Positions 16,900 through 59,758 of a DNA stretch of 64,000 bases are shown here, in pieces. Source of the DNA: Nemertoderma westbladi (taxonomy: Eukaryota; Animalia; Xenacoelomorpha); the NCBI GenBank assembly GCA_032718475.1, contig JAUCBJ010007177.1, forward strand, positions 62,001 through 126,000, given 5' to 3'. The position numbers and the translations under genes are program-made. Position 1 is the stretch's first letter. Every line of letters starts with the position of its first letter. The notes below the pieces were generated by a model that saw nothing but the letters and a program-made list of their open reading frames with translations, did not search any database and had not been told where the DNA came from.

Positions 16900-19800
16900 G
16901 TAAACTAACCTGACACCACTTATAGTCGAGTAGTGGCGGTGGTTCAGTAAACTAACCTTCACCACTTATATACGAGTAGTGGTGGTGGTTCAGTAAACTA
17001 ACCTGACACCACTTATAGACGAGTAGTGGTGGTGGTTCAGTAAACTAACCTTCACCACTTATAGACGAGTAGTGGTGGTGGTTCAGTAAACTAACCTGAC
17101 ACCACTTATAGACGAGTAGTGGTGGTGGTTCAGTAAACTAACCTTCACCACTTATATACGAGTAGTGGTGGTGGTTCAGTAAACTAACCTGACACCACTT
17201 ATAGACGAGTAGTGGTGGTGGTTCAGTAAACTAACCTTCACCACTTATAGACGAGTAGTGGCGGTGGTTCAGTAAACTAACCTGACACCACTTATAGACG
17301 AGTAGTGGTGGTGGTTCAGTAAACTAACCTTCACCACTTATAGACGAGTAGTGGTGGTGGTTCAGTAAACTAACCTTCACCACTTATAGACGAGTAGTGG
17401 CGGTGGTTCAGTAAACTAACCTTCACCACTTATAGACGAGTAGTGGCGGTGGTTCAGTAAACTAACCTGACACCACTTATAGACGAGTAGTGGTGGTGGT
17501 TCAGTAAACTAACCTGACACCACTTATAGACGAGTAGTGGTGGTGGTTCAGTAAACTAACCTTCACCACTTATAGCCGAGTAGTTCAGTAAACTAACCTG
17601 ACACCACTTATAGACGAGTAGTGGTGGTGGTTCAGTAAACTAACCTTCACCACTTATAGCCGAGTAGTGGTGGTGGTTCAGTAAACTAACCTTCACCACT
17701 TATAGCCGAGTAGTGGTGGTGGTTCAGTAAACTAACCTGACACCACTTATAGACGAGTAGTGGTGGTGGTTCAGTAAACTAACCTTCACCACTTATAGAC
17801 GAGTAGTTCAGTAAACTAACCTGACACCACTTATAGACGAGTAGTGGCGGTGGTTCAGTAAACTAACCTTCACCACTTATAGACGAGTAGTGGTGGTGGT
17901 TCAGTAAACTAACCTGACACCACTTATAGACGAGTAGTGGTGGTGGTTCAGTAAACTAACCTGACACCACTTATAGACGAGTAGTGGTGGTGGTTCAGTA
18001 AACTAACCTGACACCACTTATAGACGAGTAGTGGCGGTGGTTCAGTAAACTAACCTGACACCACTTATAGCCGAGTAGTTCAGTAAACTAACCTGACACC
18101 ACTTATAGACGAGTAGTGGTGGTGGTTCAGTAAACTAACCTTCACCACTTATAGACGAGTAGCGGCGGTGGTTCAGTAAACTAACCTTCACCACTTATAG
18201 ACGAGTAGTGGCGGTGGTTCAGTAAACTAACCTGACACCACTTATAGACGAGTAGTGGCGGTGGTTCAGTAAACTAACCTTCACCACTTATAGACGAGTA
18301 GCGGCGGTGGTTCAGTAAACTAACCTTCACCACTTATAGACGAGTAGTGGCGGTGGTTCAGTAAACTAACCTGACACCACTTATAGACGAGTAGTGGTGG
18401 TGGTTCAGTAAACTAACCTTCACCACTTATAGCCGAGTAGTGGTGGTGGTTCAGTAAACTAACCTTCACCACTTATAGCCGAGTAGTGGTGGTGGTTCAG
18501 TAAACTAACCTGACACCACTTATAGACGAGTAGTGGTGGTGGTTCAGTAAACTAACCTTCACCACTTATAGACGAGTAGTTCAGTAAACTAACCTGACAC
18601 CACTTATAGACGAGTAGTGGCGGTGGTTCAGTAAACTAACCTTCACCACTTATAGACGAGTAGTGGTGGTGGTTCAGTAAACTAACCTGACACCACTTAT
18701 AGACGAGTAGTGGTGGTGGTTCAGTAAACTAACCTGACACCACTTATAGACGAGTAGTGGTGGTGGTTCAGTAAACTAACCTGACACCACTTATAGACGA
18801 GTAGTGGCGGTGGTTCAGTAAACTAACCTGACACCACTTATAGACGAGTAGTGGTGGTGGTTCAGTAAACTAACCTTCACCACTTATAGACGAGTAGCGG
18901 CGGTGGTTCAGTAAACTAACCTTCACCACTTATAGACGAGTAGTGGCGGTGGTTCAGTAAACTAACCTTCACCACTTATAGCCGAGTAGTTCAGTAAACT
19001 AACCTGACACCACTTATAGACGAGTAGTGGTGGTGGTTCAGTAAACTAACCTTCACCACTTATAGACGAGTAGTGGTGGTGGTTCAGTAAACTAACCTGA
19101 CACCACTTATAGCCGAGTAGTTCAGTAAACTAACCTGACACCACTTATAGACGAGTAGTGGTGGTGGTTCAGTAAACTAACCTTCACCACTTATAGACGA
19201 GTAGTGGTGGTGGTTCAGTAAACTAACCTGACACCACTTATAGACGAGTAGTTCAGTAAACTAACCTTCACCACTTATAGACGAGTAGTGGCGGTGGTTC
19301 AGTAAACTAACCTGACACCACTTATAGACGAGTAGTGGTGGTGGTTCAGTAAACTAACCTGACACCACTTATAGACGAGTAGTGGCGGTGGTTCAGTAAA
19401 CTAACCTGACACCACTTATAGACGAGTAGTGGTGGTGGTTCAGTAAACTAACCTGACACCACTTATAGCCGAGTAGTTCAGTAAACTAACCTTCACCACT
19501 TATAGACGAGTAGTGGTGGTGGTTCAGTAAACTAACCTGACACCACTTATAGACGAGTAGTGGTGGTGGTTCAGTAAACTAACCTGACACCACTTATAGA
19601 CGAGTAGTGGTGGTGGTTCAGTAAACTAACCTGACACCACTTATAGACGAGTAGTGGTGGTGGTTCAGTAAACTAACCTGACACCACTTATAGACGAGTA
19701 GTGGTGGTGGTTCAGTAAACTAACCTTCACCACTTATAGACGAGTAGTGGCGGTGGTTCAGTAAACTAACCTTCACCACTTATAGACGAGTAGTGGCGGT

Positions 19801-58800: not shown

Positions 58801-59758
58801 ACGAGTAGTGGTGGTGGTTCAGTAAACTAACCTGACACCACTTATAGACGAGTAGTGGTGGTGGTTCAGTAAACTAACCTGACACCACTTATAGACGAGT
58901 AGTGGCGGTGGTTCAGTAAACTAACCTGACACCACTTATAGACGAGTAGTGGTGGTGGTTCAGTAAACTAACCTGACACCACTTATAGACGAGTAGTGGC
59001 GGTGGTTCAGTAAACTAACCTGACACCACTTATAGACGAGTAGTGGCGGTGGTTCAGTAAACTAACCTTCACCACTTATAGACGAGTAGTGGTGGTGGTT
59101 CAGTAAACTAACCTGACACCACTTATAGACGAGTAGTGGCGGTGGTTCAGTAAACTAACCTGACACCACTTATAGACGAGTAGTGGTGGTGGTTCAGTAA
59201 ACTAACCTGACACCACTTATAGACGAGTAGTGGCGGTGGTTCAGTAAACTAACCTGACACCACTTATAGACGAGTAGTGGTGGTGGTTCAGTAAACTAAC
59301 CTGACACCACTTATAGACGAGTAGTGGCGGTGGTTCAGTAAACTAACCTGACACCACTTATAGACGAGTAGTGGCGGTGGTTCAGTAAACTAACCTTCAC
59401 CACTTATAGACGAGTAGTGGTGGTGGTTCAGTAAACTAACCTGACACCACTTATAGACGAGTAGTGGTGGTGGTTCAGTAAACTAACCTGACACCACTTA
59501 TAGACGAGTAGTGGTGGTGGTTCAGTAAACTAACCTTCACCACTTATAGCCGAGTAGTGGCGGTGGTTCAGTAAACTAACCTTCACCACTTATAGACGAG
59601 TAGTGGCGGTGGTTCAGTAAACTAACCTGACACCACTTATAGACGAGTAGTGGTGGTGGTTCAGTAAACTAACCTGACACCACTTATAGACGAGTAGTGG
59701 TGGTGGTTCAGTAAACTAACCTGACACCACTTATAGACGAGTAGTGGTGGTGGTTCAG
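16900..59758 (-). repeat. About 42.9-kb satellite of 47/46/38/37-bp units derived from the PRP8 exon end plus its 5' splice site; roughly 900-950 copies
   Basis: Minus-strand unit TGAACCACCACCACTACTCGTCTATAAGTGGTGTCAG|GTTAGTTTAC encodes [12 protein letters not shown] plus 10 intron nt. The first unit is the real exon end (59757-59711). The last unit continues into unique intron (GTTAGTTTACATCACTAC…) at about 16900. Confidence 0.97.

Follow-up and report, generated by a model that had tools for sequence, protein, structure and literature searches.

A satellite of 947 splice-donor units in a PRP8 intron of Nemertoderma westbladi, probably a neutral extreme of a known repeat type

The analysed window, a 64,000-nucleotide stretch of a contig from Nemertoderma westbladi (JAUCBJ010007177.1, positions 62,001 to 126,000), carries on its minus strand two exons of PRP8, a general essential gene, and between them an intron that holds a very large tandem array (Table 1). 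Exon A and exon B join into an open frame, and exon B contains the Pfam domains RRM_4, U5_2-snRNA_bdg, U6-snRNA_bdg and PRP8_domainIV, all above cut-off. The encoded protein shares 90–93% identity with the top animal PRP8 matches, and the best of these (91–93%) come from a brachiopod, insects, an annelid, fishes and a coral, with no clear nearest group. Public sequencing runs were used for comparison: the sequence was present in five of the eight runs listed, from three studies, and the four with a share of at least 0.98 were analysed (X1–X4). X2, X3 and X4 behave as DNA. In X1, a single 6,490-nt contig has splice joints at either edge of each exon, giving three junctions, and X1 is for this reason taken to be an RNA assembly, none of the runs with the sequence being recorded as RNA. 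No second PRP8 copy of at least 90% identity was found in the assembled contigs of any of the four runs. The preliminary description of this DNA had allowed that the gene might be a pseudogene, a possibility we reject in view of the open frame with its PRP8 domains and the spliced transcript contig. Exon B, as a single exon, is unusually long, and it adjoins repeat-swollen introns.

Table 1 Features of the PRP8 locus in the window (window coordinates)
Feature	Position	Strand	Description
PRP8 exon A	59912..59721	minus	192 nt, 64 codons, human PRP8 residues 894–957, E 1e-38
Synonymous Pro codon site	59748..59748	minus	CCA in window, CCG in X1 transcript contig
Authentic 5' splice site (donor 1, CAG|GTTAGT)	59715..59723	minus	used in X1; only donor giving an open frame
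Host intron	59720..5664	minus	54,057 nt, GT..AG, phase 0
Donor-spanning satellite array	16900..59757	minus	947 units of 37–52 nt, consensus 47, 51 types
Recent higher-order duplication in array	20777..33228	minus	two blocks of ~6.1–6.2 kb: 33228–27096 and 27010–20777
Unrelated insert in host intron	6853..16473		two inverted 53-bp tandem arrays around a copia-type ORF
PRP8 exon B	5663..2595	minus	3,069 nt, 1,023 codons, no stop

TRF reported one array at 16900–59758 with a period of 46–47, 947 copies and a score of 67,492, and splitting the sequence on the donor gave 947 units, with lengths of 37, 38, 46 or 47 nt and two of 52 nt. The units stand head-to-tail and make up 42.9 kb of the intron as assembled. 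Unit 1 consists of the last 37 nt of exon A and the first 10 nt of the intron, so that the first unit straddles the exon/intron boundary, the defining feature of a junction-spanning minisatellite or ‘mirage’. The splice signal is reiterated along the array, with GT kept in 946 of the 947 units, AG|GT in 930 and AG|GTTAGT in 928. The composition of the unit and the figure of about 900 donor copies put forward in the preliminary description are thus borne out, and its account of the common variants, with changes at −1 and −2 being rare, was likewise correct: only 17 units are altered at −2, −1 or +1. Position −3 is altered in 557 units (~59%); the commonest variant, carried by 436 units, turns YAG into AAG, and CAG|GT is retained in 378. 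Three indel events were recognized, namely a 9-bp deletion, a 1-bp deletion at −3 and a 5-bp duplication in two units. On the sense strand of the array there is no AATAAA or ATTAAA, compared with 63 poly(A) hexamers in the remaining 11.2 kb of the intron. Minisatellites comprise tens of units and a few kb; with its 947 units, its 42.9 kb and its higher-order blocks the array departs from that class in size, while its layout is the same. As side observations, the duplication repeats GTTAG and leaves two GT sites 5 nt apart, and a 7-bp hairpin directly before the donor is predicted for unit positions 9–33, which the two A-to-G variants at unit positions 10 and 13 would preserve as G–U pairs.

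The genome around the array is repeat-prone. Four other large tandem arrays account for 6,902 of the 21,141 window bases outside the satellite (33%). Two of the arrays, at 6853–9233 and 14931–16473, are inverted copies of a 53-bp repeat with ~91% complementarity, and between them lies an uninterrupted copia-type ORF of 1,516 codons on the minus strand (9914–14464), in which the integrase precedes RVT_2. A search for direct repeats of at least 30 nt in 9200–15000 revealed no LTRs around this ORF. The whole insert (6600–16650) may be an element of the foldback type which picked up an LTR-less copia or into which one inserted. The flanking PRP8 introns hold tandem arrays at 61489–63689 (32 bp x 68) and 1–777 (28 bp x 27), both of them clear of the exon edges visible in the window. 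Further repeats were noted at 5990–6250, a near-perfect, MITE-like palindrome with arms of ~130 nt around a short CTCGGCCGAG repeat (6082–6163), and at 60217–60395 in the upstream PRP8 intron, a dispersed repeat that reaches depths of several thousand to 18,000 in X2–X4 and also occurs in X1 contigs.

The preliminary description had named an assembly artefact as one outcome that would overturn it, and the public DNA assemblies were found to contain the repeat. Assemblies from two studies connect exon A to high-depth repeat: contigs of X2 and X3 run from unique upstream intron into exon A and end at 59729, the very position at which the window, in a de Bruijn simulation, branches into the repeat. 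In X4, no contig covers the unique portion of exon A. The X3 contig is identical to the window, and these data may be the source of the window assembly; the X2 contig differs from the window by 7 letters, the seventh of them at an unplaced position, and 13 gap letters, and therefore represents an independent haplotype. Since the repeat is joined to exon A at high depth in independent DNA data, the array is not an invention of the assembly, and a wholesale artefact was rejected on the exon–repeat join in X2 and X3 and the high repeat depth in three of three DNA runs.

The summed repeat depth in X2–X4 was ~350–4,600 times the single-copy depth, a measure that does not equal copy number; in X3, two contigs with one variant sum to a depth of 6,825 against a single-copy depth of 18.8. 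Depths simulated from the window ranged from 720 to 10,500 depending on the overlap cut-off and bracket those observed. These depths agree with a copy number between hundreds and about a thousand, from contigs too short to place the copies at PRP8. Depth ratios and variant proportions differ among X2, X3 and X4, and because X2 and X4 derive from the same sample yet lie threefold apart, depth is uninformative on length polymorphism of the alleles.

The internal structure of the array reflects repeated duplication. A recent event gave a pair of adjacent blocks of about 6 kb, in which 120 of 139 aligned units are identical. Older duplications occur at offsets of ~306–444 units, and the longest repeated string of units is 40, compared with 5–7 in 20 shuffles. 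For all four pairs of common variants tested, all four two-site combinations are present, which implies that units were exchanged with the breakpoints lying inside them or that the same mutations recurred. The near-identity of the two blocks speaks for the idea that the repeat is real and its assembled length inflated, for example by two haplotypes placed in tandem. That short contigs cannot assign copies to the PRP8 locus, and that the summed depths reach only 0.1–0.5 of the raw simulation at a minimum overlap of 31 nt, would agree with such inflation. However, the blocks differ by gains, losses and substitutions of units and older nested duplications are present, while the depth exceeds that of single-copy sequence by factors of hundreds to thousands in three of three DNA runs and simulating the window reproduces the 59729 break of X2 and X3 as well as bracketing the observed depths. 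We therefore consider an inflated length improbable.

Which of the 947 donors is used can be read from the transcript contig. In X1, window position 59721 corresponds to record position 3191 and window position 5663 to record position 3192, with no array unit between the exons; exon A and exon B being contiguous, donor 1 was used. The result comes from one contig of one run, and rare isoforms are lost from contigs. For the same reason no weight is given to the absence of cover over the repeat's intronic part in X1. When splicing from each of the 947 donors was performed in silico, only donor 1 gave an open frame: donor 2 shifts the frame, and donors 3–947 all retain a stop where unit 2 ends. 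Products of any other donor would thus carry a premature stop and be substrates for decay, hidden from contigs. At least for the main transcript, the choice of the first donor holds against 946 near-identical competitors over 43 kb. The same outcome was obtained experimentally for human F7 (PMC1557585), and together these results support the suggestion, made in the preliminary description as one of several, of a neutral expansion tolerated through commitment to the first donor.

The hidden products also leave room for leaky or regulated unproductive splicing, in which donors 2–3 or later ones would lower PRP8 through nonsense-mediated decay and the length of the array or the speed of splicing would tune the dose, much like the fidelity sensor of the preliminary description. 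In CBS and 6-16 the next two donors are reported to be used (PMC1557585), all internal donors in PRP8 give premature stops that would conceal their products from a steady-state assembly, and 378 units keep CAG|GT. Nevertheless, X1 shows only the CAG-type joint without extra units and the donor positions are unconstrained, as set out below; moreover, slower splicing would cause more leakage and less PRP8, which would make a positive loop and not a homeostatic one. Taken together, this form of regulation appears unlikely, although somewhat less so than the inflated length.

To evaluate constraint, distinct substitution alleles were compared with a base-matched null, using hand-curated allele lists and leaving out the three indel events. 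Of 25 substitution alleles, 7 fell in the donor (−3..+6), where 4.85 would be expected (probability of a count this low 0.92); a second coding placed 6 of 27 there, against an expectation of 5.4. Positions +1..+6 held 1 of 25 alleles against 2.7 expected (P 0.21; second coding 1 of 27, P 0.13), GT held 1 against 1.0, and −2..+2 held 5 of 27 against 2.6 under the second coding. Allele counts across the array units thus revealed no constraint on −3..+6, −2..+2, +1..+6 or GT. The intron-derived stretch +1..+10 contained 1 of 25–27 alleles against 4.2–5.3 expected (P 0.05; second coding P 0.02), a borderline sign of constraint that counts against the neutral reading; some 10-nt window was as quiet in 37% of simulations, and the quiet stretch reaches past the six bases that the donor consensus has in the intron. 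All five common variants spare AG|GTTAGTTTAC, and as this would occur by chance with a probability of 0.23 it is not evidence of constraint. Selection acting on the donors is hence not supported by good evidence. The per-position comparison proposed in the preliminary description finds the donor as variable as the remaining unit, which is the first half of what it had named as refuting a functional role and leaves its suggestions of a U1 decoy, a fidelity sensor or a kinetic delay unsupported.

Position −3 is part of the site that pairs with U1, and its alteration lowers the predicted pairing from −8.2 to about −6.7 kcal/mol. This is relevant to the notion that the nascent RNA acts in trans as a decoy for the U1 snRNP or the spliceosome. 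Each transcript would offer 946 GT donors, and for the three common types predicted pairing amounts to −6.6 to −8.2 kcal/mol, but the U1-pairing core is unconstrained, and changes in most of the units have weakened the pairing. A nucleus contains 10^5–10^6 U1 particles and each allele has few nascent transcripts; with such abundances the array RNA could bind far less than a few per cent of the U1. A decoy is accordingly the least probable of the alternatives, and very improbable in absolute terms.

The array might instead aid the processing of a long intron, either through YAG|GT motifs serving as recursive splice sites that regenerate a donor or through dense U1 sites that block premature cleavage. 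The array holds 496 YAG|GT motifs, the 47-nt unit between such a motif and the next donor is close to the ~50-nt cryptic exon reported at Drosophila ratchet points (PMC8605326), splicing in recursive steps would be invisible in the mRNA, and the borderline conservation of +1..+10 could reflect a role in processing; protection from premature polyadenylation by U1 has been described (PMC5499120). Against this, none of the 496 motifs fits the pattern Y5+N0-4YAGGT given for recursive sites (PMC10156609), a weak test as the two real acceptors of the gene also fail it. The unit has six purines and an AG just before YAG, while the real acceptors have 2–3 purines and no AG, and the commonest variant destroys YAG. 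Furthermore, the long intron is caused by the array itself. We regard a processing role as improbable, at about the level of the inflated length.

The array and the adjoining exon may also exchange sequence. X1 and the window differ at one of 3,270 aligned coding nucleotides (exon A 1, exon B 0), and this change, from CCA to CCG, is also the substitution that array units carry most often (255 of 947). A random single change would coincide with one of the 27 array alleles with a probability of ~0.003, or somewhat more if only synonymous changes are considered. Unique exon sequence and the joint are each no further than one 31-mer from the site, so a chimera of the assembly graph would not account for it. 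Exchange between exon and array is the simplest reading, a hint from a single observation. The same variant might also have arisen by A-to-I editing, as it is an A-to-G change on the sense strand within the small predicted hairpin, or by recurrent mutation. If exchange is real, the satellite is writing into deeply conserved coding sequence. The consequences were explored by swapping unit ends into exon A in silico, with the two 52-nt units dropped: 281 of 945 units keep the protein, whereas 544 would cause a frameshift, 57 a deletion of three residues, 46 a missense and 16 a nonsense change, and one would lack GT, so that 664 of 945 (70%) would damage the PRP8 protein or its donor. A more far-reaching interpretation, to which we give somewhat less than even odds, is that this array, by a wide margin the largest of its kind in the literature covered, is a live appendage of an essential exon, where exchange feeds variants into PRP8, acting as a recurrent source of mutation and leaving natural barcodes. 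At −3, about 59% of the units depart from the sequence of the true exon end, so internal donor use would be countable from junction reads, and if the barcode interpretation is true the choice among ~1,000 competitors could be read from ordinary RNA reads.

The reading that we favor, with a probability of roughly 0.68, is that of a neutral runaway repeat in which later donors lose to the first and rare mis-spliced products would be destroyed. Slippage together with unequal exchange would have enlarged the array, in a genome prone to repeats. Donor 1 would win by exon definition and 5'-to-3' co-transcriptional commitment, by analogy with human F7, and nonsense-mediated decay would clear leak products. 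The lack of poly(A) hexamers together with the poor acceptor side of the unit may explain why growth to 43 kb was tolerable, and from time to time sequence would pass between the array and the end of the exon, bringing array variants into coding sequence. Our results support no function for the array; it is probably an extreme, neutral variant of a known repeat type, new in its scale and in the gene affected. It exceeds the known donor-array oddities ~35-fold in copy number (947 against at most 26 units), and the choice of the first donor against the array takes place in a gene that the animal cannot lose. With internal donor use countable from junction reads, the locus offers an exceptionally clean natural experiment on first-come commitment, on recursive splicing and on the decay of leaks.

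Among known systems, the closest is the 37-bp VNTR of 5–9 units in intron 7 of human F7 (Borensztajn et al. 2006, PMC1557585). Its first unit likewise lies over the exon/intron border, identical donors follow and only the most upstream one is used; mutagenesis demonstrated that the later donors can function but are outcompeted by the first. Most of the F7 unit is intronic (4 exon and 33 intron nt), whereas the PRP8 unit is mostly exonic (37 and 10), the copy numbers are 5–9 and 947, and donor choice was established by mutagenesis in F7 and from one contig in PRP8. Other human donor-spanning minisatellites summarized there resemble the PRP8 array but have no more than 26 units: 26 donors in intron 2 of 6-16, 15–20 in intron 13 of CBS, 10–15 repeats of 100 bp in LMNB2 and 16–18 of 81 bp in intron 4 of PDGF. 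The first donor alone is reported to be used in F7, LMNB2 and PDGF, and the second and third as well in CBS and 6-16, while the X1 contig shows donor 1, in an assembly type that drops rare isoforms. With precedents of at most 26 units, carrying the F7 mechanism over to 947 is an extrapolation.

The ‘mirage’ repeats of amphioxus, described for Adh3 and the globins BflGb6 and BflGb9, are similarly tandem duplications of exon/intron boundaries in an invertebrate that leave splicing undisturbed, and concerted evolution and length instability are reported for them (PMC3087553). The globin mirages have 3–6 units of 150–160 bp (Adh3 10–72 bp), and satellite scale or higher-order blocks do not figure in the cited parts of that account. 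Y-linked fertility genes of Drosophila share with PRP8 a satellite-inflated intron that is transcribed and spliced co-transcriptionally; their introns span megabases, are testis-specific and are not described in the passages cited as built from their own splice junction (PMC11207136). Drosophila ratchet points resemble the array in combining YAG|GT, a next donor ~50 nt on and a long intron, but are reported to be conserved and to have a real acceptor (PMC8605326, PMC10156609), while the PRP8 unit is purine-rich, has an upstream AG and in about half of the cases lacks YAG. A donor array of hundreds of units, or any in PRP8, was not found in the literature covered, mainly the main texts of open-access articles. 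The PRP8 array has the layout and the first-donor use of the mirage class and works like the F7 VNTR. As donor-spanning repeats form a described class in genes unrelated to splicing, a PRP8-specific reason for the array is unnecessary, and that the host gene is PRP8 looks coincidental.
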